Shown piece by piece: positions 25,678 to 42,439 of a stretch of DNA of 64,000 nucleotides. A program made the translations under genes and the position numbers. Source of the DNA: Candidatus Woesearchaeota archaeon (GTDB lineage: Archaea; Nanobdellota; Nanobdellia; SCGC-AAA011-G17; UBA489); contig CAYFJW010000004.1 in NCBI GenBank assembly GCA_964343875.1, positions 18,395 to 82,394 of the forward strand. The letters run 5' to 3'. Below the pieces are notes generated by a model that searched no databases, was not told where the DNA came from, and saw nothing but the letters and a program-made list of their open reading frames with translations. How positions within the stretch are numbered: position 1 is the first letter of the stretch; each line of letters begins with the position of its first letter.

Positions 25678-25702
25678 TTCCAAAAAAAGATGAGGTGATT
25701 AG

Positions 25703-26242
25703 TTGGTTTCTCCACTATACGGTTCGATAGAGTTTATGAAATCCTTTGGGATTTTTGATATAGTTTTACCTTTCTTATTAGTTTTTACAGTTATATTTGG
25801 TATCCTTGAAAAGACGAAAGTTTTTGGGAAGGAAGGGGATAGTTCTAGAAAAAACCTTAATGCGATGGTTGCTTTTACTATTGCGTTCTTTGTTGTTGCT
25901 GCGACGCAGATAGTTGCGTTGATGCAGACTGCCTTACCTTATATGATGTTTTTGTTAATACTGATAATTATGTTTATGATCTTGTTTGGTTCTACAATTG
26001 GGGAGGGTGAGTTGAACCTTTGGGAACAGTTTACTAGTAAGAAAACAAAAGGGATATTCGCTTTTGGAATCTTCATTGCGATAATTGCTATTGTCCTTGG
26101 GGCGATGGGGATGCTTGAGAGCTTGATAGATTGGTTGTTTTTGCATGTTACAGGTCCTGTGCTTTCTACAGTGATTCTATTATTGATTGTTGGGATCTTT
26201 ATGTGGATTGTTGTTGGTGGCAAGGACGAGAAAAAGGAATAA
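25703..26242 (+). CDS. Paralogous 4-TM membrane protein, first of three tandem copies
   Basis: Shared N-terminal pattern FGIFDIVLPFLLVFTVIFGILEKTKVFG with the next two genes. Confidence 0.5.
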   Translation: MVSPLYGSIEFMKSFGIFDIVLPFLLVFTVIFGILEKTKVFGKEGDSSRKNLNAMVAFTIAFFVVAATQIVALMQTALPYMMFLLILIIMFMILFGSTIGEGELNLWEQFTSKKTKGIFAFGIFIAIIAIVLGAMGMLESLIDWLFLHVTGPVLSTVILLLIVGIFMWIVVGGKDEKKE

Positions 26243-26307
26243 TTATTCTATGCAAAAAGTATTAAAAGGGATTAGTCCTTGGAATATTGTTATGAGGTGT
26301 GGACTGA

Positions 26308-26865
26308 ATGGATTTTTATGAGCTCCTGGGGAACTTTGATCAAATAGGTGGTTTTGATCTGTTGTTACCCTTTATTCTTGTGTTTACTTTGGTGTTTGCA
26401 GTCCTGCAGAAGATTAATCTGTTTGGGAGTGGCAAGAAGAATATCAACATGATTGTTTCTTTGGTAGTTGCGATCTTCTTTTTGAACAATACTTACTTGA
26501 TATTCATACTTCAGAAGTTCTTGCCTAATGTGTCAATTATATTAATAGTGTTCTTGATGTTCTTGTTATTGATTGGTGTCTTCGGTGGTGAGACGGATTT
26601 CAAAGAGGGAATGCTTGGATGGGCATTTATAGTTTCACTAATTGCGATTGGTTTTGCATTGTTTTCAGATATGTTTAATCCTATGTCCAGCCAAGGCGGA
26701 GGAATATCTGCGTGGTGGTATGAACTCATTGGACCTGGAAACACTGGGATGGTTTGGGCATTGTTCTTTTTAGTGATATTTATATTCTTTATTACGAGGG
26801 ATCCTAATCCTGAAAAGGGATTTGGTCATTACATAGAACAGTTAGGGAAGAAGATTAAGAAGTAA
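26308..26865 (+). CDS. Paralogous 4-TM membrane protein, second of three tandem copies
   Basis: GGFDLLLPFILVFTLVFAVLQKINLFG parallels the first copy. Confidence 0.5.
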   Translation: MDFYELLGNFDQIGGFDLLLPFILVFTLVFAVLQKINLFGSGKKNINMIVSLVVAIFFLNNTYLIFILQKFLPNVSIILIVFLMFLLLIGVFGGETDFKEGMLGWAFIVSLIAIGFALFSDMFNPMSSQGGGISAWWYELIGPGNTGMVWALFFLVIFIFFITRDPNPEKGFGHYIEQLGKKIKK

Positions 26866-26866
26866 G

Positions 26867-27382
26867 ATGGCAACAATATTAGAAGCAAGCGGGTTGGGAA
26901 GTATCGTTAGTATGATCCTTGTGTTCTTGTTTGTTTTTGTGGTTGTTTTTGCACTGTTGAAAAAAGCTAAGTTTTTCGGTGGCGATGGATTTGATGCAAT
27001 TATTGCGTTTGTGTTTGCTACATTTACTATAATGGTTCCCGAGACTCAGGTTGTTGTTGGGAATTTCTTACCTTGGTTCTTCATATTCTTTTTGTTAGCG
27101 TTAGTTATATTCATGTTCTTTATGTTCATGGGTGTTAAAGGGGAGACTATTGGAGGCCTTGCTAAAGAGCCGTTTATACAAGTGATTGCTATCGGAGCTA
27201 TTATTGCATTGTTCTTTATTTCGATGACAAAGGCATTTGGACCTTTCTTGTTGGTTGATCCTAGTGCTACTGGATTTTGGGCAACCACTAAAAGATTTAT
27301 ATTTACTAGGCATTTCCTGGGCGTTGTAGTGCTGTTCTTTGTTGGTGCTTACTCTATTACCTTTTTGTCGGGTAATGATTAA
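26867..27382 (+). CDS. Paralogous 4-TM membrane protein, third of three tandem copies
   Basis: GSIVSMILVFLFVFVVVFALLKKAKFFG parallels the first two copies; starts 2 nt after the previous stop. Confidence 0.5.
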   Translation: MATILEASGLGSIVSMILVFLFVFVVVFALLKKAKFFGGDGFDAIIAFVFATFTIMVPETQVVVGNFLPWFFIFFLLALVIFMFFMFMGVKGETIGGLAKEPFIQVIAIGAIIALFFISMTKAFGPFLLVDPSATGFWATTKRFIFTRHFLGVVVLFFVGAYSITFLSGND

Positions 27383-28078
27383 TTATTTTTTAAGATCTTT
27401 TAGAATCTTCTCTAGTTCCTTTACGTTGTTTGTTAAAGGATTGATTATGTTTGAGAGTAGTTTGCCTAGCGCCTTTATTTCTACTCCTACATCTGTTACT
27501 GATTCATCATATTCTCTTACTTTTCCAATAACTGAGTTTTGAAGGTTTTCAAATCTGTTTTCAACTCTCATTACTTCCTGTTTGATTGCATCAATGTCGT
27601 TTGAAATTTTATCTTTCCATGAAAGGATGTCTCCGAATTCTTCCGTCATCTTCTGCCATTTTTCATGGATAATTGATTCTGCAATTTCTTCAATGTCTTC
27701 AGTTGTTGCACCCAGATTTGATGAAGGATAATTAAATGATTCTTGTTCTGGCCAAGCTTGTGGTTGGTAACTTTCTTGCATTGGTTCCATTTGCGGTTCT
27801 TGTATTGCTGGTTCTGATGGTGCGGGTGGTTCGGGGGTCGTTGGTTCATTGCCTTCTGAATACAGAACTGAAGGTTCCATTTTACCTGGTGATTCAGTTG
27901 GTGGTTGTGCTACTGGCTCTGCTGTAGGGCTTGCTTGTGATTTGTTAAGCGCTTCAGAAATTTGTTGGAAAGAATAACCTTCTCCTTGAAGGGTTTGGAT
28001 TATCTCTGTATTTGATTTTCCACTGCCTTGGAGCTCGTGTACTTTATTTATTGGCGTATCTTCTGGCAATCTCATCAA
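27383..28078 (-). CDS. Hypothetical protein: N-terminal HTH-like segment, Pro/Glu-rich linker, C-terminal coiled coil
   Basis: 231 aa with a PTAEPVAQPPTESP...TTPEPPAPSEP low-complexity linker and a heptad-rich C-terminus. Lies divergent from the pilus ATPase gene. Confidence 0.5.
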   Translation of the reverse strand: MMRLPEDTPINKVHELQGSGKSNTEIIQTLQGEGYSFQQISEALNKSQASPTAEPVAQPPTESPGKMEPSVLYSEGNEPTTPEPPAPSEPAIQEPQMEPMQESYQPQAWPEQESFNYPSSNLGATTEDIEEIAESIIHEKWQKMTEEFGDILSWKDKISNDIDAIKQEVMRVENRFENLQNSVIGKVREYDESVTDVGVEIKALGKLLSNIINPLTNNVKELEKILKDLKK

Positions 28079-28091
28079 CCTCTTTCATAAT

Positions 28092-28469
28092 TTACTCGTT
28101 TATTTCAGATTTAAACCTTTCTAATCTCTTTTCTAGTTGTTCATCTGTTACTAATTCAATAACATTAAGCATATCCATATATTTCTCTAGTACTTTGATT
28201 TGATCTTTCTTTGCAAAAATGCTCATTTCCTTGACTAAATCTCTTACAACGTCTTGTGTGTTTTGTGTTCCTAGCCTTGCTTTCTTTGTTTCAAGGGAGA
28301 TGTCTCTTATTTCTTTCATTAATTTTTTGTATTCTTCAATCATGTTTTGATTGATTACGAGAAGTCTTTCTGTTAAGATATTGTATTTGTTTTCAAGAGC
28401 CCTTATTCGTCCGTTAAGGTCTGCGATTATGTGGCTCGGGTCTGTTTGATTGAATTGTGGGCCTGGCAC
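28092..28469 (-). CDS. Coiled-coil protein, hypothetical
   Basis: 125 aa, heptad-rich (ALENKYNILTERLLVINQNMIEEYKKLMKEI...). Confidence 0.45.
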   Translation of the reverse strand: MPGPQFNQTDPSHIIADLNGRIRALENKYNILTERLLVINQNMIEEYKKLMKEIRDISLETKKARLGTQNTQDVVRDLVKEMSIFAKKDQIKVLEKYMDMLNVIELVTDEQLEKRLERFKSEINE

Positions 28470-28575
28470 TTTCCTCTTTTTACCTCTTGGTGGTCTTAGG
28501 TGGCGGCTTATTTAAATACTTTGTTAGATTTTTGAGGGGAGCAATTTATATAAATTTGACAGTTAGAACTAATGT

Positions 28576-30858
28576 ATGGCTTTTCAAAAAGAGGGAGTTT
28601 ATCAGGTAATTAGGGAGGGGAAGGAAGAAGTTTTGAAGGTTAATGCGGCTGCTTGGTCATATACTCCTTCCGTTGAAGATGTTCCCAATGTAATGGCTGA
28701 TGTCATCGATATGTTGGTTGCTTCTCCAGGCATAAAGAGGATTATATTCAATCAGAGAAAGAAATTTGTTTATTCTTATGACCAAACACAAATGTTGTTA
28801 GAGGTTGCAGGAATTTATGCACATTTGATAAAAGGTAAAAGAGTGTTAAGTATTTCTCAATGGGGTTTTGATGAAGTTAGTTCTAGGTTCTATGGCGATA
28901 AGATTAGTGAGATTCAACATTTAGTTATGGGTTTGTTAAGAAGCGATCCTCTTGGTGCTTTCGTTGAGACTAAAAGAATTTTGAGAGAGGAGAAAATATT
29001 ATTGCAAAGAGACAAGGATGAAAGGATTGCCAAAGCGAGAACAAATTATATTTCTTTGTTGACTGATATGGTTGAGTTGTTGAAGAAAACCCGTTTGGTT
29101 CAAGTTGTTAAAGATAGGCTTGATGGTTTTCATTTAGGGGATAGGAGTTTGTATCGTGATATCTTTCGGGCAACAGTTACACCCGACTTTATGTATACTC
29201 GTTTGAGAGCGAATCCTCCATTGGATGGTGAGGAATTAGATTATTATTCAAACGGAAGTAATGAAATTACAATATTTAGAATGCCGAATGATATTAAGAC
29301 GTATTATCATGCTGTTCCAATCGAGTTTAAGTTAAGGGAAGATGAGTATGAATTATTGGATCTAGCAAAGAGTGTTTTAGCAGGGCATAAACCCCGAAAT
29401 GAGGAGTTTTTAGACCCTGGGAGGATGAGGACTACGTTCTACAATATTGGAAGAGATTTGTTGGATGAGCTTGCGAAGAACAAGGGTTATGATATCCCTT
29501 ATGAAAGAATTTGTGAACTTGCAAAGATTTTGGTTAGGTATACTGTTGGATTTGGGTTAATTGAGGTGTTGCTGTCGGATAAGAAAGTTCAGGATGTTAC
29601 AATTAATAGCCCTATTGGAAAGTCTCCAATATTTTTAGTTCATCAAGATTACGGAGAGTGTTTTACAAATATATTGCCTAGTTTTGATGATGCAGAAAGT
29701 TGGGCAACAAAGTTTAGGTTAATTAGTGGAAGGCCATTGGATGAAGCGAATTCTGTTTTGGATACGGAGTTAGCAATTCCCGGTGCAAGAAGTAGAGTTG
29801 CAATTATGACTAGGCCGTTGAGTCCGCAAGGTTTGGCTTTCGCTATGAGAAGACATAGAGATAGGCCTTGGACATTACCCTTATTTGTTAATAATAGAAT
29901 GATTAGTCCGCTTGGTGCGGGGTTAATTAGTTTCTTAATTGATGGTGCAAGAACAATGCTTGTTGCTGGAACAAGAAGTAGTGGTAAAACAAGTTTACTT
30001 GGGAGCTTTTTAGTTGAAATAATGAGGAAGTATAGGGTGATTACAGTTGAAGATACATTAGAATTGCCTGTTGAATACATGCGTAAGTTAGGGTACAATA
30101 TTCAAAATATGAAGGTTAGGTCTGCATTGACTAAGGGTGGCTCTGAGCTTGGCGCTGATGATGGGATCAGGACTAGTCTAAGGCTTGGGGACAGTAGTTT
30201 GATTATTGGAGAGGTTAGGAGTTTGGAGGCTAAGGCTCTTTATGAGGCTATGAGGACTGGTGCTTTAGCTAATGTTGTTGCAGGCACAATTCACGGTGCA
30301 AGTCCGTACGGTGTTTATGATAGAGTTGTTAATGATTTAGAAGTTCCTAAGACAAGTTTTAAGGCAACCGATGTGATTGTTGTTGCGAATCCTGTTAAGA
30401 CTGCAGATGGTTTGAGTAGTTGGAAGAGAGTTTTACAATTAACAGAAGTTAGAAAACATTGGCAAGATGACCCTTTAACCGAAAGAGGTTTTGTTGATTT
30501 AATGAGGTATGATACTAAGAAAGATGAGTTAGTTCCAACTGCAGACTTGTTGAATGGTGAAAGTGAAGTTGTTAAGGCTGTTGCAGGGAGTGTTAGGGAA
30601 TGGGTTGGAAATTGGGACGCTGTTTGGGAAAACATAATGTTAAGAGCGAAGATAAAACAAACCTTAGTTGAATATGCAAACAAAACGGGGAACAGGGAAA
30701 TTTTAGAATCTAACTTTGTTGTGGCATCTAATGATATGTTTCATCGTTTGATTGAACAAGTTAGAGGGGAAGTTGGAGCAATAGATTCTAATCGTGTATT
30801 TTATGAGTGGGACGATTGGGTTAGAAAATCAATAAAAAGCACTAAGAAAAAAATTTAG
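28576..30858 (+). CDS. Type IV pilus / archaellum-type secretion ATPase (FlaI/PilB/VirB11 superfamily) with a long N-terminal extension, 760 aa
   Basis: GFGLIEVLLSDKKVQDVTINS, Walker A-region LVAGTRSSGKTSLLG, Walker B / Asp box SLIIGEVRSLEA, His box AGTIHGASP. Confidence 0.85.
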   Translation: MAFQKEGVYQVIREGKEEVLKVNAAAWSYTPSVEDVPNVMADVIDMLVASPGIKRIIFNQRKKFVYSYDQTQMLLEVAGIYAHLIKGKRVLSISQWGFDEVSSRFYGDKISEIQHLVMGLLRSDPLGAFVETKRILREEKILLQRDKDERIAKARTNYISLLTDMVELLKKTRLVQVVKDRLDGFHLGDRSLYRDIFRATVTPDFMYTRLRANPPLDGEELDYYSNGSNEITIFRMPNDIKTYYHAVPIEFKLREDEYELLDLAKSVLAGHKPRNEEFLDPGRMRTTFYNIGRDLLDELAKNKGYDIPYERICELAKILVRYTVGFGLIEVLLSDKKVQDVTINSPIGKSPIFLVHQDYGECFTNILPSFDDAESWATKFRLISGRPLDEANSVLDTELAIPGARSRVAIMTRPLSPQGLAFAMRRHRDRPWTLPLFVNNRMISPLGAGLISFLIDGARTMLVAGTRSSGKTSLLGSFLVEIMRKYRVITVEDTLELPVEYMRKLGYNIQNMKVRSALTKGGSELGADDGIRTSLRLGDSSLIIGEVRSLEAKALYEAMRTGALANVVAGTIHGASPYGVYDRVVNDLEVPKTSFKATDVIVVANPVKTADGLSSWKRVLQLTEVRKHWQDDPLTERGFVDLMRYDTKKDELVPTADLLNGESEVVKAVAGSVREWVGNWDAVWENIMLRAKIKQTLVEYANKTGNREILESNFVVASNDMFHRLIEQVRGEVGAIDSNRVFYEWDDWVRKSIKSTKKKI

Positions 30859-30861
30859 CAG

Positions 30862-33009
30862 GTGAAATTAATGCCTAAGAAAACTGATGACATAATTAGG
30901 GAGTATGAGAAGAAGCTTGAGGATGAGTATGGTCCTGGCTATGTTGAAGCTTTTGAGCCAGATTTGGTGAATAAAGAATATGAATTGTTTCGTTCTGAAG
31001 TTTTAGAGAGGAAGGTTACCAATTACGAGAAGTGGTGTTATGCTGCTGAAAAAATAATAAAGATTTCTCCATCTAAGAGGGACTTGCCGGAGTTAAAGAA
31101 GAGTATTGAAATTGCCCATTTGAATGTTACCCCTGAAGCTGCTGCTAGTTTTGGAGCTTTGGTTGCTTTTGGGTTGATACTTTTTGGTGTTTTGGTTATG
31201 GGGATAACTTATGCTTTTGGGAGTATTAGTTTTTTCTTTCCAATATTCTTGATTATTGCTGGTGCCTTGGCGATAAAACCTCTTAGCAATATTCCAATTT
31301 ATTTGGCCAATCGTTGGAGATTGGAAGCAAGTAATCAGATGGTTCTTTGTATTCTGTACATTGTTATGTACATGAGACATACAAGTAATTTAGAACATGC
31401 GGTTAAGTTTGCCGCAGGGCATATTGGGCCACCATTGAGTTTAGATTTTAAGAAAGTGTTCTGGGATATTCAAACTGAGAAGTATTTTAGTATTAAGGAA
31501 AGTTTGGACAAATATCTTGAGAACTGGAGAGATTATAATTTAGAATTTGTTGAATCTTTCCATTTAATTGAGGGTAGCCTGTATGAACCAAATGAGTCTA
31601 GAAGGGTTATGTTGTTAGAGAAAGCGTTGGAAGTTATGCTTGAAGGGACTTATAACAAGATGTTGCATTATGCACACAATTTGAAAGGACCCATTACATT
31701 GCTTTACATGCTTGGTGTGATATTGCCCATTTTGGGTTTGGTTATTTTTCCGTTGATTGGAAGTTTTATGGGTGGCGCTGTTAAGTGGTATCATTTGGGA
31801 ATGTTGTACAATGTTATTTTGCCGATTGTGTTGGTTATTATGGGGAGTAATATGCTTGCTAAGAGACCTACGGGTTATGGTGAGAGTGAACTGTTGAAAA
31901 GTAATCCCGAGTTTAAAGTTTATGAACAATGGGTTGTTAATGATAAGGTTGTTCCTGTAAGCCCGAAGGCTGCCAGTATACTGGTTGGCGGCGTGATTGT
32001 TTTAGTTGGTTTAATGCCTTTGTTGATACACTTAATTAATCCTGGTTATGAAATGTCTCTTGGTGCACTTGGTCCATTTTTAGATTACAAAGGCGAGAGT
32101 GGGCCATATGGTGTTGGCGCATTAATCATGGGGATGCTAATTCCTTTAGGAATTGCAATTGGTGTTTCAATGTATTACGGGATTAAGACCAATCGTTTAA
32201 TTAAGATAAAGAAAAAGGTTGATAATCTTGAAGAAGAGTTTAGTGGTGCTGTTTTTCAATTAGGGAATAGGATTGGTGATGGCATTCCTGCAGAAGTAGC
32301 CTTTGGTGAGGTTGCGAGGACAATGAGCGGGACTCCAACGGGGAACTTTTTTAGCACTGTTGATAGAAACATACGTAAGTTGGGTCATGGGATGAGCAAG
32401 GCTGTTTTTGATTCAAGAGTTGGCGCGATATTATTGTTTCCTAGTAATCTGATTCATAGCACTATGAAGGTTTTGGTTGAAAGTGCGAGAAAAGGTCCGA
32501 AGGTTGTTAGTGCAAGTTTGATTACCATCAGTAAGTATGTTGATAGAATAAAACAAGTTAATGAAAGGTTGAAAGATTTACTTGCAGATGTTTTGAGTAG
32601 TATGGTTAGTCAGATTAACTTTTTGACACCTTTGATTGCAGGTATTGTTGTGGGTGTTGGTAGCATGGTTACAACTATCATTGGTAAGCTCGGTTCCGCA
32701 TTTGATACTGTAGGGGGTGTTGGGGCAGAGGTTCCTTCAAATTTGGGTGCGCTTGCGAGCATAATGAATATAAAAGATGCAATTCCAGGTTACTTCTTCC
32801 AGTTGGTTGTTGGTTTGTATGTGTTAGAGATTACGATAGTATTGACAATACTAAGCACCAGCATTGAGAGAGGGATGGATAAAACTACTACGAGGCACAG
32901 GATTGGTAAGAATGTTAAGAAGAGCATGTTGCTGTATATGGTAGTTGCTTTGATTGGAGTGGTGTTGTTTAATTTGTTGGCAAATGCTGTTAGCTTCGCC
33001 CCATCATAG
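30862..33009 (+). CDS. FlaJ/TadC/PilC-like polytopic membrane platform protein
   Basis: 715 aa with more than 8 TM helices; positioned immediately after the ATPase as in archaeal type IV pilus and archaellum loci. Confidence 0.7.
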   Translation: MKLMPKKTDDIIREYEKKLEDEYGPGYVEAFEPDLVNKEYELFRSEVLERKVTNYEKWCYAAEKIIKISPSKRDLPELKKSIEIAHLNVTPEAAASFGALVAFGLILFGVLVMGITYAFGSISFFFPIFLIIAGALAIKPLSNIPIYLANRWRLEASNQMVLCILYIVMYMRHTSNLEHAVKFAAGHIGPPLSLDFKKVFWDIQTEKYFSIKESLDKYLENWRDYNLEFVESFHLIEGSLYEPNESRRVMLLEKALEVMLEGTYNKMLHYAHNLKGPITLLYMLGVILPILGLVIFPLIGSFMGGAVKWYHLGMLYNVILPIVLVIMGSNMLAKRPTGYGESELLKSNPEFKVYEQWVVNDKVVPVSPKAASILVGGVIVLVGLMPLLIHLINPGYEMSLGALGPFLDYKGESGPYGVGALIMGMLIPLGIAIGVSMYYGIKTNRLIKIKKKVDNLEEEFSGAVFQLGNRIGDGIPAEVAFGEVARTMSGTPTGNFFSTVDRNIRKLGHGMSKAVFDSRVGAILLFPSNLIHSTMKVLVESARKGPKVVSASLITISKYVDRIKQVNERLKDLLADVLSSMVSQINFLTPLIAGIVVGVGSMVTTIIGKLGSAFDTVGGVGAEVPSNLGALASIMNIKDAIPGYFFQLVVGLYVLEITIVLTILSTSIERGMDKTTTRHRIGKNVKKSMLLYMVVALIGVVLFNLLANAVSFAPS

Positions 33010-33069
33010 GGATTAGGAGTATTTAAATAAGTGAAAACGATTATAAAGGATTGAATCTGGTGTTTTAAG

Positions 33070-35472
33070 ATGGTAAAAGGGGTAAAGGACTTTATTTTGA
33101 ATGGAAGGACTCGTTTTGTCTTTTTGTTTTCTTTGGTTTCTTTGTTTGTTTTAAAGAGTGTTAATGCAGTGGTGTATTTAGGGCAGACTTATACTGGTTG
33201 GAGCGCTTTTGGCTATGGATTCAATGATTTGCAGAGTTTTTATTATGCTTATCCAGGCTGGATTGATTTTGTAGTGTTGTTTGCGTTGTTTTATTCTGCT
33301 GCGCTTGGTGTGTTTGGTAAGAAGTTTGAGGAGAATAATGCTGGAAAGGGATTGGCAGTTGCAATTGGTCTGGTTCTGTCTTTAAGTGTTGCTTTGTTTG
33401 AAGCTGCGCAAGGAATCTATATGTGGCAATGGGGTGCGCCACTTGTAGTTGTTGGTTTATTAGTTGCGGTGTTCTTTGGAGTGTATCATTTATCTAGGAA
33501 AATGAGGCTTGCAGGATTAACTGCATTTTTGTTGGCTGCGGTTATTACTTATTTGGTTTGGTTGGCAATTACTACTTGGACTGGCATGGGTCAAATGACT
33601 TTCATTAGTTTTACAATGGGTAATATTGATTTAGGTAATTGGTTGTTCTGGGTTTTAGTTGTTATTGGTTTGATTGCTTTGTTTGCATTGTTAAAGTCTT
33701 TGTTTTCTGGTGATGATTTCGGTGGCCGAGGACGACGTGGTCCTAGAGGTCCTCGTGGGGGTCCTGGACAGCCAGGTAGGACTGGAAGAAGTGGTAGGCG
33801 TGGCGGTAGAGGAGATCCTGGAGATAAGGGTCCGCATGGTCCAACTGGTGCTGAAGGGATAGTCGGTCCACCTGGCGATCCCGGAGGAAGAGGTCCGTCT
33901 CCTGTACCTGGTGTTCCTGGTGGAGGAACTACTCCTGGTGAACCCGGACAATTGGCGTTGCCTCCTGGTCCTGTTATGAAGGTGCTTGGTCCTGGTGAAC
34001 CCTGGAAAACACAAAAAGTTGATCCAGTTAGAATTAGAAGATTGGGCCAGATTTACAACAAGATAAGATCGCTTATAGGTAGGAATTCAAAATTGACATT
34101 ACAGTTAATCTCAGTTCTTCATGAATTGAAGAAGGGTGTTACTGATGAACCTTCCCTAGCAACTTCAGAAGGAAAGGTACAAAGAAGGATTGACAAATTA
34201 ATAAAAGAACTTACTTTGTTTAATAGGACATTGTTATCTAAGACTATAGACCTTGATGGTATTGAAAACATGCGTGCTTATTTTAAGGGCATATTGCTTG
34301 AAATGAATAAAATTATGAGAGAGCTTAGTGCAGTTTCTTCTCTTAAAGATTATATCAGGAGAGCTAACAGGATTGCACTTACTATTTGGGAAACGGACAT
34401 TAAGCAATTAAGTAAGGCTGTTCGTGTTCTTAAATCTGGGAGTAGAGAATATTTGGGGAATAATGTAGGTAAATTAACGATGCTCCAATTTGTACAAGTT
34501 TTAGTTGTTTGGAAAAAGAATTCTGGCCGGATTGTTAGAGGGGTTACTGATGGGCCTGGGGATGAGGGCGAGGTTCAAGGACATGATGTTGTCGCATTTT
34601 CTAAGGATATTTACAGGAAAATTGCTCTTGGTTGTCATACAGACAAAACTAGAGGGTACGACGAAGGAACAAGGGCAAGATTAAGAGCTATATTTGAAAG
34701 GGCAGTTCAAGCATATAAGGAAGGAGATCACCAGGAGTTAGTTAGACTTAGAGATGAGATGATTAGCATAATTGGCGATACTAAAAGTGGGGAAGGACCG
34801 AAGGCCTTAAAATCTGGGACAAGTATTGAGGCATTGGAAGATATTCTTTCTGTTCCAATTGCAATTCCAAGATCAAGAAGAGGGATCTTTGTAACAAAGA
34901 AAAAGATAAGGGAGCTTAATGTTCCCCAGTTTGCTTCTTATGTTTTGTTTTCATCAACATCTAATAGATTAAGTGATGCATATAAACTTAGGGAACAAGT
35001 GACTTCGGTGATTCCAAATGCCTTTACACAATTGACTGAAATGAGGAGACTTTTAGATAGGGCAAATTATTATGTTAAAAATTCTAGGAATTATCGAGCT
35101 TTCGTTGAACAATATGAGGAGTTGATGGCTCTTAAACCTAAGATTGATCAGTTGGCTAATGGTATGAAGGCCAATCGGTTGAATTCTGCTGCCAAAAGAG
35201 CATATACAAATCTTATTGAGAGTACTGAGTTTAATAGAGCCTTTTTGAAGAAGTTTGGACAGAGGGCAACAACCGGAGGTTGGGAGGTTGTATTTTCTGA
35301 TCCAAAGAAGGTTGCATTTATCCTAGAGTATCCTAGGAAAGATGGTGGCCAAAAGTTATTGTGGAGATATTTTAATTTATCATACGATGCATTGATTTCA
35401 CTGGATGCAATGCTGAATAAGTTGAAAGATGGTCCTGTTAGACAAATAAAGAAGGATTGGAGTAATCCATGA
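33070..35472 (+). CDS. Membrane protein with 20 consecutive collagen-like G-X-Y triplets and a long alpha-helical C-terminal domain
   Basis: About 5 N-terminal TM helices, then GGR GRR GPR GPR GGP GQP GRT GRS GRR GGR GDP GDK GPH GPT GAE GIV GPP GDP GGR GPS (aa about 216-275). The encoding DNA at about 33715-33900 is a strongly GC-rich island. Confidence 0.7.
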   Translation: MVKGVKDFILNGRTRFVFLFSLVSLFVLKSVNAVVYLGQTYTGWSAFGYGFNDLQSFYYAYPGWIDFVVLFALFYSAALGVFGKKFEENNAGKGLAVAIGLVLSLSVALFEAAQGIYMWQWGAPLVVVGLLVAVFFGVYHLSRKMRLAGLTAFLLAAVITYLVWLAITTWTGMGQMTFISFTMGNIDLGNWLFWVLVVIGLIALFALLKSLFSGDDFGGRGRRGPRGPRGGPGQPGRTGRSGRRGGRGDPGDKGPHGPTGAEGIVGPPGDPGGRGPSPVPGVPGGGTTPGEPGQLALPPGPVMKVLGPGEPWKTQKVDPVRIRRLGQIYNKIRSLIGRNSKLTLQLISVLHELKKGVTDEPSLATSEGKVQRRIDKLIKELTLFNRTLLSKTIDLDGIENMRAYFKGILLEMNKIMRELSAVSSLKDYIRRANRIALTIWETDIKQLSKAVRVLKSGSREYLGNNVGKLTMLQFVQVLVVWKKNSGRIVRGVTDGPGDEGEVQGHDVVAFSKDIYRKIALGCHTDKTRGYDEGTRARLRAIFERAVQAYKEGDHQELVRLRDEMISIIGDTKSGEGPKALKSGTSIEALEDILSVPIAIPRSRRGIFVTKKKIRELNVPQFASYVLFSSTSNRLSDAYKLREQVTSVIPNAFTQLTEMRRLLDRANYYVKNSRNYRAFVEQYEELMALKPKIDQLANGMKANRLNSAAKRAYTNLIESTEFNRAFLKKFGQRATTGGWEVVFSDPKKVAFILEYPRKDGGQKLLWRYFNLSYDALISLDAMLNKLKDGPVRQIKKDWSNP

Positions 35473-35509
35473 GGAAATATTTAAATAGATTTAAGATGGT
35501 GATAAGAAG

Positions 35510-35932
35510 ATGGCAGAATTATTAATACTTCCGGCAATTTATTTGGGAGTAGTTATTGGGCTATATGAGGCAATTCTGATGCATAGGGATGTGAGTGTTC
35601 CTGCGCATAGATTTGGCCATATGATTCATGCTTTAATATTTGCATTGGTTGCAGTTTTTGCAACAATGAATGTTGACTTTGTATTTTCTGTAATTCCTGC
35701 ATTAGCTAATATCAAGTTTGTTGGAAACCCTTTAGTGTTTAGGATTGGAATTGGTATTATTGCTATGTTTAAAATACATGCAATTAGTGCGGCTGCTCCT
35801 GGAATGGCTGGTGGCAGTGTTGGTTTGAAGGAGAAGTGGAGTCATAGTTTTATTATCGGGGCGTTGATTGTTGCGGCACCTTACATATGGCCTTTTATTG
35901 AGCCAGCTGTAGGGTTCTTGCCAGGAATTTAA
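35510..35932 (+). CDS. Membrane protein, hypothetical
   Basis: 140-aa hydrophobic ORF. Confidence 0.4.
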   Translation: MAELLILPAIYLGVVIGLYEAILMHRDVSVPAHRFGHMIHALIFALVAVFATMNVDFVFSVIPALANIKFVGNPLVFRIGIGIIAMFKIHAISAAAPGMAGGSVGLKEKWSHSFIIGALIVAAPYIWPFIEPAVGFLPGI

Positions 35933-35933
35933 A

Positions 35934-36185
35934 ATGTTTGAACTTTTGAGTGTGGCTTCTTATTTACCATTTTTATTAGTGCCTACTGTGTTGATAATTG
36001 TAATGTTGTGGGAACTGATTTGGAAGGGATTTGCTCTCTGGAGATCTGCGAAGAATGGGCAGAAATATTGGTTCATTGCAGTTTTAATAATAAACTCTGT
36101 AGGAATATTGCCAATTATTTACTTGGCTTTCTTTTCTGGAAGAAAACCTAATAAAAGGACTGGTAAGAAAGTTAAAAGAAAGTAG
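35934..36185 (+). CDS. Small membrane protein of the PLD-nuclease N-terminal (PLDc_N) type
   Basis: LIWKGFALWRSAKNGQKYWFIAVLIINSVGILPIIYLAFF fits the PLDc_N small-membrane-domain pattern. Confidence 0.45.
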   Translation: MFELLSVASYLPFLLVPTVLIIVMLWELIWKGFALWRSAKNGQKYWFIAVLIINSVGILPIIYLAFFSGRKPNKRTGKKVKRK

Positions 36186-36913: not shown

Positions 36914-38071
36914 ATGGTGGTCTTGACTAAACTTAAAAAAAAAGGAGATTTAAGACATAGTACTTTAATATTACTTATTCTTGCTGGGGTGGGACTAATC
37001 ATTTACTCTTTCTTTTTTGCAGATGTTAAAGAGATTATTGAGACGACTACAGAAGATGAGGTTTGCAGAACGAGTGCTGCTTTAAAGACTAAAACAAAGG
37101 GACCAGTGGGCACGGAATCTCCAGTTAGCTTAAAGTGTGCTATTAATGACTTTAAATCAGATGCTAAATCAAAAGAGGAAGTCAAGTTAGAAATTGCTAA
37201 AGAGATGTATCGTTGTTGGTATAAATATGGGGAGGGCCAGTTAGATTTTTATGATAGTTGGGATTTTGGTGTAAGTGACACTCATTGTTTAATCTGTTCA
37301 AGAATTAAGTTTGATGAAGATGTTGAAGAAATAACCTTTGGAGAATTTGGTGCTTATTTGAACTCTCCATTGCCAGGAAGGGAAGAAACTTTTGCGGAAT
37401 ATTTTACAAAAACACCTCACGCTAAGATACAAATAGGGCCCAAACCTGGAGAGGGTACAACTGCAAGTTCTTTGATGGAGCTAGATAAAGGAACATATGT
37501 TGTTTTTAGAGTGAACAAGCATAATGAAGATAACCAGGCGATTGCTTCTTTGTTTACAAGCGAAGAAGCGGATTTATCTTATACTGCTTCCGGTGTGCTT
37601 GCTGCAGAAGGCGCGGTTTATCAGGGTGCTAGAAGTTATGCATTGGGTGGTGAGGTTATTGGTGGTTTCCAAGATGCGAGTGGAAATTTGTTTTTTTCAC
37701 ATGCGGATGATGCTGGCAAATATTTTGTGAGGGATGCTTCTGGAAAGTTTGTATCTGGTTTTGGATCGACAAAGTTCAATTCTATTGCTGAAATGAATAG
37801 TTTTGCAGTTGGTAAAAATCTGAAGGTTGTTTCAAAAAGCTCTGCTAGGACATTGCTCCGGAAAACTGCTAATCTTGGTGAGAAAGCTGCAATAGGTGTT
37901 GCTTCAAAAGTAGTTGGAAAGAAGGTTGCGGGAAAGCTTATCCCTGTTGCCGGATGGGCGTTGGCAGTTTATGATGCAGTTAGTGCAATAGCGTGGGCAG
38001 ATGAGCTTCACCCAGCGGTTGTGCTTTATGGGGTAAATGATATAAATGCTGCCTGTGATACATTAGCATGA
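36914..38071 (+). CDS. Secreted or membrane-anchored protein, hypothetical
   Basis: N-terminal TM/signal anchor LILLILAGVGLIIYSFFF; 385 aa; Gly/Ala-rich C-terminus. Confidence 0.45.
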   Translation: MVVLTKLKKKGDLRHSTLILLILAGVGLIIYSFFFADVKEIIETTTEDEVCRTSAALKTKTKGPVGTESPVSLKCAINDFKSDAKSKEEVKLEIAKEMYRCWYKYGEGQLDFYDSWDFGVSDTHCLICSRIKFDEDVEEITFGEFGAYLNSPLPGREETFAEYFTKTPHAKIQIGPKPGEGTTASSLMELDKGTYVVFRVNKHNEDNQAIASLFTSEEADLSYTASGVLAAEGAVYQGARSYALGGEVIGGFQDASGNLFFSHADDAGKYFVRDASGKFVSGFGSTKFNSIAEMNSFAVGKNLKVVSKSSARTLLRKTANLGEKAAIGVASKVVGKKVAGKLIPVAGWALAVYDAVSAIAWADELHPAVVLYGVNDINAACDTLA

Positions 38072-38080
38072 GGTTTTTAT

Positions 38081-38391: not shown

Positions 38392-40101
38392 ATGGTGCTT
38401 GGGAAAAAAGGAGTGAGTCTTCCTATAAATCTGATAATTATTATAATTATTGGACTTTTTGTTTTTGGGGCAGCTTATTTTGGTTTTATTAAACCTTCAC
38501 AAGAAGGAAGTAGCGTATTTGGAGATCAGCTTGATGCGTTTAAGGATAAAAAATTTAGCTTAATGGATTTTGATACGCTAACAAAAGAAGAAAAACAAAA
38601 AATTGCAGAGGATAGTCCTCGGTCTATTGTAGAAAATACACTAAACTCTATTGATGGTTTAATTCCTGGAGACTGTAATAGGGCTAAGAAGATTGCGGAG
38701 TTACTGAGGAATGAGAAAAAAGTATCTGGCTTTGATAAAGATTTTGAACTTACGGTTGCTGATATTGAGATACTGGATGATCTGATCCAAAAAGCTGATG
38801 GTTGTATCAAACAAGGAGGGGTTGATTCTATTGATGCACAAATTAGAAATATCAATGGTTTAATTAAATCTGGAGAGGACGGGTTAGGGTCTTGCAGTAG
38901 TGCAAAGTTAATTTCTGAAGGTCTTCTGAGTAGCGGGGTTCAGAGAAGTGATGGGGCGGTCGTAATGCCAGACCAATCTCAAGAACTCCAGATTAAAGCT
39001 GCAATTGAAAGGGCAGACCTTTGTATCGAGGTTTATGAGGTGCCTTTGAGAGAAGAAAAAGAAGAAATAAGGAAGGCAAATGATAACCTAATAGCTGAAA
39101 AAGAATGGTATGGTGTGTTGTTGAAGGATTATGATGCCGCCCTTAAAAGATTTAAACTAGATGTTCCAAGAGTCTTTGATTTTGAGAGTGAGTGTAGTAA
39201 TGAGAATAAAAACCAGTGGGAACTGTTATCTGGAAGGACACAAGATACTAGGACTAAGGTTGTAGGAGAGGAGGGTGATTATTCTGGTTTAGATAGGAAG
39301 GAAAAAGAAATTATATTCTCTCTTGACGATCAAGCAGATTATTTTAATTTTGTTTGTAAGATGCGGGATGGAGATTGTAAGAGGTCTTATTATTCTCCCT
39401 CTAAATTTTTTGAGTTTTCTGATGTAGATTTACCTAGGGAATTGAAATCTGAAGAAATATATGCTGTGTACAAATTAGAAGAATCTCAATGTTATAAGGG
39501 TAAAAAAGATTTTGTTAATTCATGGAAAAGTTTTGAAGATGTTAAAGAATCTGATAAAGATCAAAGCTTGTATACTGCCTTTTTTAGTGATTATATTTCA
39601 ATGTTGAATGTGGATATTTTAGATTATAGCTTTGCTATGATGAACAGCATGAAATATGTTGAGGAGAAAATCACAAGTTATGGTGGGAATGATGATGAAG
39701 AACTTGCGGCATTTAGGAATGATAATATTATTGGTTGCCCATGGGACTTTTCCGATTATGATGAGAATATCAATAGCAATCCTGAGCATTGTAGTAGCTT
39801 TAACTATGCTGTTGTGAGCAAGTTTTTGGGTCCCTATGGATTGGATATATTGGATGACTCTCTTAGTGGGTCTGAACAGTTGTTGTTAGCTGTTGAAGAG
39901 GGATGGATACTTGATCCCGTATTATGTTATTGGAGAACTTCGGGGGACAATACTTGTAATTCTTGTAAGTATGGTTCTTATCAGGGGAAGTTAAATAGCT
40001 GTGGAGAATATTTAGAACAGAGTACTTGTGAATTGAATTCTTGTGGTCAGAATGCTCCAGGTGGTTGTAGGTGGACTGGTTCGAAGTGTATTGAGAGTTA
40101 G
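38392..40101 (+). CDS. Large pilin-like / surface protein with class-III signal peptide and Cys-rich C-terminus (candidate adhesin)
   Basis: MVLGKKG|VSLPINLIIIIIIGLFVFG N-terminus; 569 aa; more than 20 Cys, concentrated C-terminally. Confidence 0.55.
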   Translation: MVLGKKGVSLPINLIIIIIIGLFVFGAAYFGFIKPSQEGSSVFGDQLDAFKDKKFSLMDFDTLTKEEKQKIAEDSPRSIVENTLNSIDGLIPGDCNRAKKIAELLRNEKKVSGFDKDFELTVADIEILDDLIQKADGCIKQGGVDSIDAQIRNINGLIKSGEDGLGSCSSAKLISEGLLSSGVQRSDGAVVMPDQSQELQIKAAIERADLCIEVYEVPLREEKEEIRKANDNLIAEKEWYGVLLKDYDAALKRFKLDVPRVFDFESECSNENKNQWELLSGRTQDTRTKVVGEEGDYSGLDRKEKEIIFSLDDQADYFNFVCKMRDGDCKRSYYSPSKFFEFSDVDLPRELKSEEIYAVYKLEESQCYKGKKDFVNSWKSFEDVKESDKDQSLYTAFFSDYISMLNVDILDYSFAMMNSMKYVEEKITSYGGNDDEELAAFRNDNIIGCPWDFSDYDENINSNPEHCSSFNYAVVSKFLGPYGLDILDDSLSGSEQLLLAVEEGWILDPVLCYWRTSGDNTCNSCKYGSYQGKLNSCGEYLEQSTCELNSCGQNAPGGCRWTGSKCIES

Positions 40102-40138: not shown

Positions 40139-40558
40139 ATGAGAAGAATTGGTGTTTTGGGAAGGTATTTTAAGGATAAGAGGGGTGTAGAACTTACTCT
40201 TAATACAGTTATAATTGCTATTCTTGTTGTGCTTGTTCTTATTGTTCTTATTGGATTTTTCCTTGGAGGGACTGGGAAAGCTAAATCACAGATACAAGAT
40301 CTTTTTGGTTCAAGTACTAGTGCTTCTTCGGTGAGTATTGCGATTGAACAGTGCAAGATCTATTGTGATCAAGTTAAGGATTCTGGTATGACTGCTGAAC
40401 AGGCTAAAACATCTCTTTATTGTACGAAAAGTTTTAAATTAGACACTAATGGGGATGGTGTGGCAGATTTAGAGGGCGGATCGGATAGTAAGGAGATAGA
40501 TTACAAATGTAGTGGTCCTCCTTTGTCCGTTGTGTGTAATCCGGTCGTAACTTGTTAA
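40139..40558 (+). CDS. Type IV pilin-like protein (class-III signal peptide)
   Basis: FKDKRG|VELTLNTVIIAILVVLVLIVLIGFF; Cys-containing C-terminal domain. Confidence 0.55.
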   Translation: MRRIGVLGRYFKDKRGVELTLNTVIIAILVVLVLIVLIGFFLGGTGKAKSQIQDLFGSSTSASSVSIAIEQCKIYCDQVKDSGMTAEQAKTSLYCTKSFKLDTNGDGVADLEGGSDSKEIDYKCSGPPLSVVCNPVVTC

Positions 40559-40613
40559 ATAATAAATGGGGTTTGCTCAATAAGTTTATAAGTGTGTGAG
40601 CTGTCTTTGTGAG

Positions 40614-41129
40614 ATGTTTAATGGCAAGAGGGGACAGTCCATAGGAATGTTTGAATCTATTCCTGGTATCCTTCTTGGGGCTATAATTACTATTGCAATT
40701 GTGGGTGTCATTGCAGCTTTTTGGACTCTGTTTTTCAATACAGGAGGGATTGATTCTACAACGAGGAATACTTTTGATTTGGTTGTTAATGATATTTTAG
40801 ATATGCAGGGTTTAGATGAGCCATCTAGAAATGTTAATATTCAGTTTGAAGATGAGTACACATTGGTTGCGTTTAGTAAGGATTCATGGAGTGTTGGGGC
40901 ATGTAGGGGTCTCGAAATTGTTAGGCCCTTAAAAAGCTGTGAGGGGGCCTGTATCTGTATTTGCATGAATGAGCAAGGAGAAAATATGTGCAATGTAAAG
41001 AATGTAATCTGTAGGGATTTTGATAACATTGATTTGGATTTTGAAGGAGAATGTAATCTAATTGATGGAACTGGTGAGCCACAAAGTATTCAGCTTAGAC
41101 AAACAAACAACAAGTTCAACATCACTTGA
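40614..41129 (+). CDS. Type IV pilin-like protein, likely starting at MFNGKRG
   Basis: NGKRG|QSIGMFESIPGILLGAIITIAIVGVIAAF. Confidence 0.5.
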   Translation: MFNGKRGQSIGMFESIPGILLGAIITIAIVGVIAAFWTLFFNTGGIDSTTRNTFDLVVNDILDMQGLDEPSRNVNIQFEDEYTLVAFSKDSWSVGACRGLEIVRPLKSCEGACICICMNEQGENMCNVKNVICRDFDNIDLDFEGECNLIDGTGEPQSIQLRQTNNKFNIT

Positions 41130-41170
41130 TTTATCAAAAACCATTTAAGGTTAAAGTCTATCTTTTTGGT

Positions 41171-41560
41171 ATGAATAAAAAAGGGACTTCGTTATGGTAT
41201 ATCTGGCTCGTTCATTTTTTCTTGGTAGTGGTTATATTTTTAACACTCTATGGTAAGGTTGTAGCAAGTAAGGATGATACGGGTTATAACTTAGATTTTT
41301 ACGCAAAAGATATAGCTTATGGGGTTGAAGGAATGTTGTGGGCAGATGGAGATATTTCTTATGTATACCCACTCAAAGAGAAATATGATATCCAAATTAA
41401 TAATGATATTGGGCTTGTTTTTGTGAAAAAGGGTATGGCTCAGGAAAGTTATCCTTTTAGGGTGCGACCTGGATTCTTGGTGAAGGTTGAACCTTCTTTT
41501 TTGGATGGAGAATTAGAGAATCCTTATTTGATTAGTAAGGTGGAGAGTGAAGTCACATGA
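41171..41560 (+). CDS. Pilin-like protein, likely starting at MNKKG
   Basis: MNKKG|TSLWYIWLVHFFLVVVIFL. Confidence 0.45.
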   Translation: MNKKGTSLWYIWLVHFFLVVVIFLTLYGKVVASKDDTGYNLDFYAKDIAYGVEGMLWADGDISYVYPLKEKYDIQINNDIGLVFVKKGMAQESYPFRVRPGFLVKVEPSFLDGELENPYLISKVESEVT

Positions 41561-41970
41561 GTTTTATGACTACAATGATGATGATTAAAGCGATTGCAGC
41601 TGTGATCATAGTTACTGTTTCTTCTTTTGTTTTTGTGGCTATCCTTGGCAGTCATTTAGGGAGAGAAGTCTATACAGAGGATATTGAATTTTCTTTGGCA
41701 AAAGAGCACGTAGTTAATGTTTTTACAGAGGATGGTGTGACTACAAAAAAAAGTTGGGATGAGTTTGAGATGATGGAAGATCCTAGGTTTGCCATGAAGG
41801 TGGAACTTGGGGAAGAGAGTTATATTTCTAATTCTCGGCTTTATGAATATGGAGGTCTTTGTTCAATTGATGGGGCCTTTATTATGTGTAGTCCGGAATT
41901 CAATGACTTCTATTTGGTTGATGGTGATTTAGAAAGCGCAAAGCTTAGTGTGGTGATTGAAATTGGATAA
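41557..41970 (+). CDS. Pilin-like / membrane-anchored small protein
   Basis: N-terminal hydrophobic helix IKAIAAVIIVTVSSFVFVAIL; start overlaps the previous stop. Confidence 0.4.
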   Translation: MSFMTTMMMIKAIAAVIIVTVSSFVFVAILGSHLGREVYTEDIEFSLAKEHVVNVFTEDGVTTKKSWDEFEMMEDPRFAMKVELGEESYISNSRLYEYGGLCSIDGAFIMCSPEFNDFYLVDGDLESAKLSVVIEIG

Positions 41971-42439
41971 GAAGGGTCTGTTTGGAATATCTGAAACATT
42001 TGCAATATTCTTGTTAGTAATTGCTTTTGTTGGCTTTTGGCTTGCTTTTGAGATCGCAGATAGTTTTGGCTCTGGAGATGGGGAGTTGGTTTCATATGAA
42101 ATTGAGGAATCTAAAGAGTATGGCCTGGTGTTTTTAAAAACACCTTTAGAAATTGATGGTATTAAGATGACTTTTGCAGATTTAATTGTTGAAAGTGTGG
42201 AAAGTAAAGATTATGAACTACTTGAAGAATCTTTGGATGAACAATTTGATGAGTCTGAGATTTATTGGTTGGTCTTAGTTCATGATTCTGAGGGTAATCT
42301 GGTTAAAAAATTAACAAGATCTGGATGGTCTTCTAAGGGCGGGCAGAGGGAAAATATTCAGGAAATTAGGGTTCCTGGTTATAATGAAGATGAATTGAGA
42401 ATAAGTCTAAGATTAACTGGGGGAGAGAGGCTAGTTTAG
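41957..42439 (+). CDS. Pilin-like protein (class-III signal peptide)
   Basis: LDKKG|LFGISETFAIFLLVIAFVGFWL. Confidence 0.5.
   Translation: MKLDKKGLFGISETFAIFLLVIAFVGFWLAFEIADSFGSGDGELVSYEIEESKEYGLVFLKTPLEIDGIKMTFADLIVESVESKDYELLEESLDEQFDESEIYWLVLVHDSEGNLVKKLTRSGWSSKGGQRENIQEIRVPGYNEDELRISLRLTGGERLV

Follow-up and report, generated by a model that had tools for sequence, protein, structure and literature searches.

A predicted type IV filament assembly locus conserved across Woesearchaeota, with an extended motor ATPase and a divergent platform protein

INTRODUCTION

Extra N- and C-terminal domains are a known feature of the motor ATPases of archaeal type IV pili (T4P) (PMC4858521; bioRxiv 10.64898/2026.04.22.720090). 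In a MacSyFinder-based reclassification of 2026, these terminal domains were treated as signatures of individual subsystems and were proposed to be interfaces for accessory proteins (bioRxiv 10.64898/2026.04.22.720090). ATPases of subclade 4F often have a variable, Cys-rich N-terminal domain and are accompanied in Halobacteria by a coiled-coil cytoplasmic accessory protein; they are 'also found in nanoarchaea', where no pilins were identified (PMC4858521). The same 2016 census of archaeal T4P mentions neither DPANN nor Woesearchaeota by name, and the flaI, flaJ and flaK genes of Woesearchaeota appear in the literature at the level of KEGG annotation only, where they were read as flagella or adhesion genes (PMC5994134, PMC11606122). 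Here we analyzed a 64,000-nt stretch of DNA from a Candidatus Woesearchaeota archaeon (assembly GCA_964343875.1, contig CAYFJW010000004.1, positions 18,395 to 82,394; hereafter the window) and describe a locus that very probably encodes the core of a type IV filament (TFF; pilus-like) assembly system.

Woesearchaeota, one of the most widely distributed groups of uncultivated archaea, have genomes below 1 Mb and presumably depend on hosts. An initial annotation of the window had recognized an archaeal type IV filament core at 27383–36185, consisting of a FlaI/PilB-like ATPase gene followed by a platform gene. This description was borne out, and every open reading frame (ORF) that it listed was recovered at the position it gave. 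Its boundaries were too narrow, with further conserved parts of the locus lying at 25703–27382, 36914–44761 and 50046–50924. The locus is a lineage-specific variant of a known machine and not a new kind of system.

MATERIALS AND METHODS

The species scan used one genome per GTDB species. It found the platform gene in at least 592 species, and 80 loci were retained. Nearly all of the retained loci are labeled Woesearchaeota, Nanoarchaeia/Nanoarchaeota or 'archaeon', and a few metagenome-assembled genomes are labeled Methanosarcinales or bacterium; the complete genomes CP066683 and GW2011_AR20 are among the loci with the platform. Comparisons of related loci covered 82 loci, with the ATPase detected in 77 and the other five being short contigs or cut at the 5′ end. 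Full-length ATPase orthologs were present in 66 loci; 36 ATPase orthologs entered the motif alignment and 34 platform orthologs the scan with the T2SSF model. Pilin-like ORFs were called by a simple rule of motif plus hydropathy, namely a [KR][KR]G leader followed by a single hydrophobic helix.

RESULTS

A motor ATPase of the PilB/FlaI/TadA superfamily

The two central genes of the locus, with the parts of the ATPase given in residues, are as follows (AF2, AlphaFold2).

28576..30858, + strand: motor ATPase, 760 amino acids (aa), with T2SSE, FlaI, TadA and afGspE2 matches
ATPase residues ~1–195: N-terminal extension, modeled by AF2 as a small alpha/beta domain (9–66) and a helical bundle (68–196)
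ATPase residues ~200–440: FlaI/GspE-like N-domain
ATPase RecA-like C-domain: Walker A GTRSSGKTS (465–473), Walker B LIIGEVRS and His box GTIHG
ATPase residues ~700–760: C-terminal extension
30862..33009, + strand: divergent GspF/PilC/FlaJ-type platform, 715 aa, by AF2, Foldseek and profile homology

By its sequence, the 760-aa protein is an ATPase of the PilB/FlaI/TadA superfamily. It matched Pfam T2SSE (PF00437) at 1e-13 and 51.2 bits, above the gathering cut-off of 24.9, and its closest PDB structures were A. fulgidus GspE2 (2OAP, 3.7e-25), followed by CpaF and FlaI. The NCBIfam models of FlaI and TadA scored alike, at ~114 bits each, and the FlaI score of 114.2 bits was far below the cut-off of 550 for the FlaI equivalog (NF058587). 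Walker A, Walker B and the His box align to 2OAP, and their residues are invariant or nearly so in the 36 aligned orthologs; the motifs quoted in the initial annotation fall on these residues. No second T2SSE ATPase was found elsewhere in the window, nor were further paralogs of the membrane and coiled-coil proteins described below.

The ATPase has a conserved N-terminal extension

In the alignment with FlaI, FlaI residues 97–122 pair with residues 293–301 of the ATPase and FlaI residue 501/527 pairs with residue 699, leaving ~180–200 extra residues at the N-terminus and ~35 at the C-terminus. A frame error fusing two genes had been considered as a possible source of the extra length. Homologs of the ATPase gave >5,900 matches, and the best 120 of these are almost all ~750–770 aa long (a few are truncated or intein-bearing) and nearly all 59–92% identical over 97–100% of their length. 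A fusion by frame error was thus ruled out, as the full-length architecture is kept in the best 120 matches and in the 66 loci, and the extension is conserved in frame in well over 100 full-length orthologs.

The AF2 model of residues 1–300 had a predicted local distance difference test (pLDDT) score of 80.7 and three parts: a beta-beta-alpha-beta-beta domain (9–66), a helical bundle (68–196), and a beta-sheet with helices (200–299) that runs into the region alignable to known N-domains. Residues 1–300 had no match in Pfam, and the family profile of the extension had none among PDB sequences. A Foldseek search of PDB with the model of the extension gave no credible match, the best having a probability of 0.72 over 50 columns, and hhalign against the N-terminus of a Haloterrigena relative gave a probability of 1.4. 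Across 1.84 billion representative proteins, the profile of the extension matched 458 clusters, whose full-length members have 717–917 or 1126–1783 aa, the remainder being fragments; in the longer class, inteins were confirmed by Pfam for the checked examples only. These lengths indicate that the domain is limited to this ATPase architecture. The extension, which the initial annotation had been unable to assign, is therefore real by its conservation and unassignable by Pfam, PDB sequence and fold searches.

Two further features were observed among the orthologs. A CxxC...CxxC pair in the helical bundle (residues ~100–110 and ~150–156) is present in 5/36 and 6/66 orthologs and suggests a zinc site in these proteins; the ATPase of the window lacks it. 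Nine of the 66 full-length orthologs (L010, L023, L031, L032, L033, L044, L061, L068 and L072) have 1259–1979 aa, and the checked ones among the long homologs P0044, P0049, P0050, P0073 and P0078 carry inteins (PF14528, PF14890), so that the pilus ATPase appears, by sequence, to be a recurrent intein host in Woesearchaeota.

A highly divergent platform protein adjoins the ATPase

The platform gene likely starts at the ATG at 30871, giving 712 aa, the length of a 100%-identical database protein (P0121). The protein has ~9–10 transmembrane (TM) segments and two cytoplasmic helical domains (~145–273 and 442–580). Its AF2 model (pLDDT 80; predicted template-modeling score 0.75) is polytopic and helical throughout, and includes two helical modules on the cytoplasmic side. 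The PilC chain of a type IVa pilus machine model (3jc8_Ca) ranked at the top in Foldseek, and solved cytoplasmic domains of OutF, EpsF and PilC were matched with probabilities of 0.98–1.0, target-normalized TM-scores of 0.69–0.76 and root mean square deviations of 2.6–3.2 Å. Of the four lines of evidence for platform identity, the most decisive was the match of its family profile to a Haloterrigena 'secretion system protein' over 485 columns (hhalign probability 99.8, E 1.7e-27). The gene adjoins the ATPase gene in all 77 loci with a detected ATPase. The protein thus combines a polytopic architecture with modeled helical cytoplasmic domains of the GspF/PilC fold, and its gene lies beside that of an ATPase.

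Three results count against this assignment. The protein had no match in Pfam or NCBIfam, and its family profile found nothing among PDB sequences. The Foldseek E-values were poor (0.5–2.8) because the matches cover only ~115 of 715 residues, and it is this ~115-residue domain that the probability and the target-normalized TM-score support. No internal duplication was detected by hhalign. The T2SSF sequence model likewise did not match the window protein; its weak matches in 5 of 34 orthologs (best E 0.009) count in favor of the assignment. All of the >3,800 homologs are named 'hypothetical' save one JGI ortholog labeled TadB. From the structure model and the profile match, we conclude that the 712–715-aa protein is a predicted, highly divergent GspF/PilC/FlaJ-type platform. 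The FlaJ/PilC-like label of the initial annotation, to which the sequence libraries gave no assignment, is supported by this fold and profile evidence.

Pilin-like genes and a prepilin peptidase complete the locus

Downstream of the platform lie nine ORFs at 36914–44761, eight of which begin with a short basic leader that ends in [KR][KR]G and precedes one N-terminal TM segment. These and the peptidase gene are as follows.

36914..38071, + strand: p385, large Cys-rich pilin-like protein at the start of the cluster; homologs in 39 loci
38392..40101, + strand: p569, large pilin- or adhesin-like protein; KKG then TM; Cys-rich C-terminus
40139..40558, + strand: p139, small conserved pilin-like protein; KRG then TM; homologs in 38 loci
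40596..41129, + strand: p177, pilin-like; KRG then TM
41126..41560, + strand: p144, pilin-like; KKG then TM
41557..41970, + strand: p137, small N-terminally anchored protein within the cluster; no recognized [KR]G motif
41957..42439, + strand: p160, pilin-like; KKG then TM
42440..43261, + strand: p273, pilin-like; KKG then TM
44366..44761, + strand: p131, pilin-like; KKG then TM; beyond the RPA gene
50046..50924, − strand: prepilin/preflagellin peptidase of the A24 family; Pfam Peptidase_A24 6e-16, Arc_PepC_II 0.0016

In the 66 related loci, 190 ORFs with [KR][KR]G and then a TM segment were found downstream of the platform on the + strand versus 12 upstream, with a median of ~5 pilin-like ORFs per locus. 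None of the pilin-like ORFs matched a Pfam pilin family. BLAST found no homologs of p569 in related loci. The p139 protein has conserved cysteines and a DxNGDG motif and is a candidate for the major pilin. Judged by their leaders, eight ORFs carry predicted class III (prepilin) signal peptides (SPIII) in a window that also encodes an A24 peptidase, and cleavage is predicted; the peptidase is likely the enzyme that processes them. The pilin cluster, the peptidase, and a trio of paralogous membrane proteins described below were absent from the initial annotation. Together they make the locus, as predicted here, a complete filament system.

A second run of four secreted proteins without family matches is encoded at 53119–57871 on the + strand. 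An SPIII-like leader (RRNKKG and then a hydrophobic stretch) is present in one of them and lipobox-like LAGC signals in two, and the four may be further surface or filament-associated proteins.

The locus is standard in Woesearchaeota

The gene order is essentially invariant: a 249-aa membrane protein (−), TraB (−), a PRC barrel (+), the membrane-protein trio memABC (+), the coiled-coil proteins cc231 (−) and cc125 (−), ATPase (+), platform (+), a ~215-aa protein, pilins, RPA and RadA. The part from memABC to the pilins keeps this order in ~60 loci of different species. The locus is a standard, vertically inherited Woesearchaeota locus, and the phrase 'unusual, possibly undescribed' module in the initial annotation was overstated, given its presence in at least 592 GTDB species and the extra ATPase domains already known in archaeal T4P.

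Coiled-coil and membrane proteins next to the ATPase

The genes that flank the ATPase and platform genes are listed below.

25703..26242, + strand: memA, 179-aa polytopic membrane protein with ~5 TM segments, first of three tandem paralogs
26308..26865, + strand: memB, 185-aa paralog
26867..27382, + strand: memC, 171-aa paralog
27383..28078, − strand: cc231, 231-aa cytoplasmic protein with an N-terminal helical domain (possibly helix-turn-helix (HTH)-like), a P/Q/E-rich linker and a coiled coil
28092..28469, − strand: cc125, small cytoplasmic coiled-coil protein of 125 aa
28470..28575: A/T-rich divergent intergenic region of 106 bp with two TATA-like elements (~28508–28520 and ~28544–28557)
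33070..35472, + strand: 800-aa protein; residues 1–215 are a signal peptide and a 5-TM domain

The cc125 and ATPase genes diverge from one 106-bp intergenic region, in which the two TATA-like elements are putative promoters, as inferred from their sequence. The cc231 gene adjoins the ATPase region as part of this divergent pair in 61 of the 62 related loci that extend upstream, and cc125 is co-located with it in 61–62 loci. The C-terminal coiled coil of cc231 is well conserved over 110 residues. Its N-terminal mini-domain of ~45 residues (GxSxxQIIxxLxxxGYSxxQIxDAxNQ) is variable and missing in some orthologs; it weakly matched HTH_38 (E 0.18), and JGI calls a few orthologs 'MerR'. All 915 homologs of cc231 are labeled Woesearchaeota/Nanoarchaeota and named hypothetical or, by JGI, 'MerR'. 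The cc125 protein consists of a coiled coil and has a conserved motif at its C-terminus; neither protein has a TM segment. Searches of Pfam and PDB for specific families gave generic coiled-coil noise only for both proteins, for example Laminin_II, BLOC1_2 and DASH_Dad3, with FlaC_arch appearing in this noise for 5/30 at E ≥ 0.003. Homology between cc231 and cc125 was rejected (hhalign probability 1), and a MazG match of cc231 (7e-5, over 36 residues within the coiled coil) was treated as spurious.

The memA, memB and memC proteins are mutually homologous (hhalign probability 99.8–100). In the 54 related loci that have it, memA is always upstream of the coiled-coil pair; it had no family in Pfam. 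Residues 1–215 of the 800-aa protein aligned to memB (hhalign probability 82, E 1e-5), and the second iteration of the hidden Markov model (HMM) search recruited memB-like proteins; by this profile evidence, the segment is a predicted distant fourth mem paralog. In most relatives, this ~215-aa domain is a stand-alone gene directly after the platform (at least 27 loci).

The coiled-coil pair and the mem trio may belong to the filament system or may be mere conserved neighbors, for example cell-division or envelope proteins beside the PRC-barrel gene. Several observations tell against their membership. Housekeeping neighbors, namely RPA, RadA, TraB and the PRC barrel, are equally syntenic across the lineage, which makes synteny alone weak evidence of function, and what ties the coiled-coil pair to the filament is gene neighborhood. 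In locus L018, where a topoisomerase gene precedes the ATPase, the pair is missing from the 10 kb upstream of the ATPase and the mem trio is gone as well. Neither cc231 nor the mem family was detectable near the distant relative L083, which retains no more than the ATPase, the platform and small ORFs, nor were homologs found near L084, where the ATPase is kept alone; tracing cc231, cc125 and mem to these two loci yielded only a weak, biased coiled-coil match. The generic nature of the coiled-coil matches points the same way. On the other side, L067 and L081 lack TraB, the PRC barrel and the 249-aa protein in the upstream 10 kb and still keep all genes from memA through the platform. The ATPase and platform of L018 moved together with one mem paralog and the 215-aa protein, which lie directly after the platform and are followed by pilins. 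The intergenic region shared by cc125 and the ATPase and the distant mem paralog directly after the platform also argue against chance neighbors. We consider it quite possible, though not what we would expect, that the pair and the trio are neighbors only. The proposal in the initial annotation that the two coiled-coil proteins are regulators or stator-like accessories was overstated, the basis for such a role being gene neighborhood.

Lineage-specific genes downstream of the platform

Beyond the conserved ~215-aa domain, the region between the platform and the pilin cluster differs between relatives.

35510..35932, + strand: 140-aa 4-TM protein; found in 6/82 loci; no family match
35934..36185, + strand: 83-aa 2-TM DUF5652 protein (PF18893, 2.8e-24); found in 3 loci

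A collagen-like G-x-y tract spans residues 218–294 of the 800-aa protein (Pfam Collagen 3.9e-5, at 23.8 bits below the cut-off of 27.2). This tract, which had been noted earlier, is real as a G-x-y repeat, but together with the ~500-aa helical tail it is restricted to close relatives, so that the collagen extension does not stand as a conserved part of the module. The 140-aa and DUF5652 proteins, which had been counted among the module parts, are lineage-specific by the locus counts above. The latter had been labeled PLDc_N; DUF5652 was its only match at E ≤ 0.1. Between the DUF5652 gene and the pilin cluster sits a truncated ion-channel-like gene (36186–36734, − strand), whose 182-aa product matches only the first part of Ion_trans (6.9e-7) and is present in close relatives only.

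Other features of the window and of distant loci

The window is archaeal chromosomal DNA, as its genes for RadA, RPA, Cdc6/Orc1, both PolD subunits and Lon show, and the labels of its closest relatives point to a Woesearchaeota/Nanoarchaeia (DPANN) organism. Nearly all 2-kb bins across positions 1–64000 had a positive GC skew and the cumulative curve climbed monotonically, in keeping with a coding bias that strongly favors the + strand in the window. Upstream of the mem trio, a TraB/PrgY/GumN-family gene (24596–25303, − strand) overlaps the gene for the 249-aa polytopic membrane protein (23889–24638, − strand; no family match), and this pair is conserved in ~45 loci. Small PRC-barrel proteins are encoded at 25336–25677 (+ strand) and 9232–9585 (− strand); the former, with a median identity of 65% and a syntenic position just before the mem trio, is possibly a cell-division protein and not a part of the filament system. 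Downstream of the pilin cluster, a 376-aa ORF (47021–48151, − strand) that resembles a LAGLIDADG-type endonuclease by eye overlaps, by 44 nt of its 3′ end, a tRNA-Arg(GCG) gene (46992–47064, − strand).

Among the distant loci, L084 (Ga0246100_100461; 'Euryarchaeota archaeon HGW-Euryarchaeota-1') encodes a 785-aa ATPase with the N-terminal extension (family HMM E 1.9e-236); it has no adjoining platform gene and lies beside restriction-modification and Rpr2 genes. Locus L085 (Haloterrigena plasmid pHTUR04, record 10249–27271) has DUF7311, DUF7382, a Cdc48-like AAA ATPase, a DEAD/DEAH helicase, ParA and DUF87 as neighbors.

DISCUSSION

A proposed mechanism of filament assembly

Taken together, the predicted components describe a complete, lineage-wide type IV filament system that is distinctive in its ATPase extension, its unusually divergent platform and its candidate lineage-specific accessories. 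In the assembly mechanism that we propose, pilin-like precursors with class III signals would enter the membrane and be trimmed by the A24 peptidase, which is encoded 14 kb away. A hexamer of the 760-aa ATPase would dock on the two cytoplasmic helical domains of the platform, and ATP hydrolysis would power the transfer of processed pilins out of the membrane and into an elongating surface filament. Of this scheme, sequence analysis and structure prediction show what the ATPase is, that the modeled platform has a GspF/PilC-like fold, that pilin-type signals and a peptidase are present, and that the arrangement as a whole is conserved. The ~195-residue N-terminal extension may serve as a docking surface for subsystem-specific accessory proteins, with cc231 and cc125 as the likeliest partners, in the role of scaffold or regulator, and the small polytopic mem proteins, three encoded upstream and one downstream, may join the membrane assembly. 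Docking of the coiled-coil proteins would agree with the published view of terminal ATPase domains as specific to subsystems (bioRxiv 10.64898/2026.04.22.720090) and with the presence of a coiled-coil accessory protein in subclade 4F (PMC4858521). By analogy with what has been proposed for other DPANN and for bacteria of the candidate phyla radiation (CPR), the filament would most likely serve adhesion to a surface or to a host cell.

Other readings of the locus

A stronger claim would be that the locus is a distinct, unclassified archaeal TFF subsystem, in which the N-terminal domain, the coiled-coil pair and the four mem proteins form a scaffold without counterpart in the 12 described subsystems and serve a host-contact or uptake apparatus. 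We regard this as doubtful.

A further reading is that of a short pseudopilus or bindosome-like structure for uptake of DNA or nutrients or for protein secretion, in place of a long adhesive pilus. Tiny genomes such as CP066683 (736 kb) presumably rely on imported building blocks, and the many distinct pilin-like proteins, the large Cys-rich p385 and p569 among them, recall the minor pseudopilins of type II secretion and Com systems. Binding proteins with SPIII have also been proposed to functionalize archaeal TFFs (bioRxiv 10.64898/2026.04.22.720090). However, no substrate-binding-protein domain, ComEC-like channel or secretin-like component was found among the scanned proteins of the locus, and the small p139, conserved in 38 loci, suits a major filament subunit. 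We consider an adhesive filament the more likely function and an uptake or secretion device improbable.

That the locus specifies an archaellum for swimming motility, as KEGG-style listing of flaI, flaJ and flaK for Woesearchaeota implies (PMC5994134, PMC11606122) and as the JGI name 'archaeal flagellar protein FlaI' for some ATPase orthologs and the alignment of the NCBIfam FlaI model over residues 301–699 might suggest, is hardly tenable for an ATPase that scores 114 against a FlaI cut-off of 550, equal to its score with bacterial TadA, that has afGspE2 and not FlaI as its best PDB match, and whose bulky extra domains set it apart from the minimal ATPases of archaella (bioRxiv 10.64898/2026.04.22.720090), in a region where 27 locus and flanking proteins scanned with Pfam and NCBIfam gave no Arch_flagellin, FlaF/G or FlaH/KaiC-type match. 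The initial annotation had likewise judged the locus not to be a standard archaellum, in agreement with these scores and scans.

Significance

A locus of ~20 kb is held at a fixed chromosomal position throughout the species with the platform, and such retention suggests that it is central to the lifestyle of these archaea, in attachment to hosts or surfaces or in uptake. Standard annotation names the ATPase only and labels the platform, pilins and accessory genes 'hypothetical', so that surveys based on Pfam, KEGG or arCOG would overlook the system or take it for an archaellum. The components listed above, namely ATPase, platform, pilins, peptidase and candidate accessories, are concrete targets for further study. 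The locus is also a well-sampled example of TFF ATPases gaining subsystem-specific N-terminal domains.

Comparison with known systems

The archaellum motor FlaI/FlaJ (ArlI/ArlJ) belongs to the same superfamily and has the same order of ATPase and then platform, with FlaI aligning over residues 293–699. The Woesearchaeal ATPase differs in scoring below the FlaI equivalog cut-off and in having ~195 extra N-terminal and ~35 extra C-terminal residues, and archaellins and FlaF/G/H were not found among the scanned proteins. The Tad/Flp pilus is comparable in that the ATPase is as similar to CpaF/TadA as to FlaI and that the one JGI platform ortholog is labeled TadB. Unlike Tad/Flp, the Woesearchaeal locus has SPIII signals of the archaeal type and an A24 peptidase that is likewise archaeal; it lacks TadZ, RcpA and a secretin, and its platform is one long protein instead of a TadB and TadC pair.

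Outside DPANN, the nearest relatives found of the ATPase and of the platform are encoded on plasmid pHTUR04 of Haloterrigena turkmenica (WP_012945992 and WP_012945991, respectively). WP_012945992 is 36–37% identical to the ATPase over residues 227–678, and WP_012945991 is the protein matched by the platform profile; the two genes have the same order as in Woesearchaeota, and WP_012945991 likewise has no Pfam T2SSF match. In contrast, WP_012945992 is 648 aa long and fails to align over its first ~190 residues, and the plasmid locus has no mem or cc homologs.

Among the systems compared, the archaeal T4P of the 'euryarchaeal plan' (clade 2, 4C and 4F of Makarova; systems 2 and 4F of Sivabalasarma and Albers; Haloferax PilB/PilC) likewise have one ATPase gene with a platform encoded by a single gene behind it. 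They also share with the locus several SPIII pilins and large adhesin-like proteins, and their ATPases have additional domains at both termini. The Cys-rich N-domain of 4F is partly paralleled by the CxxC...CxxC pair of some Woesearchaeal orthologs (5/36). Relative to these systems, the extension has no detectable homolog outside this ATPase family, the platform escapes Pfam T2SSF, and no counterpart of the mem family or of cc231/cc125 was detected; compared with the 4F ATPases of nanoarchaea, the Woesearchaeal pilins are encoded in cis. The locus thus conforms to the general plan of archaeal TFFs and may represent a DPANN branch of 4F or system 2. By ecological analogy, it resembles the type IV pili of CPR episymbionts, in which an ultrasmall, host-dependent cell has likewise kept a pilus system (PMC11623550).

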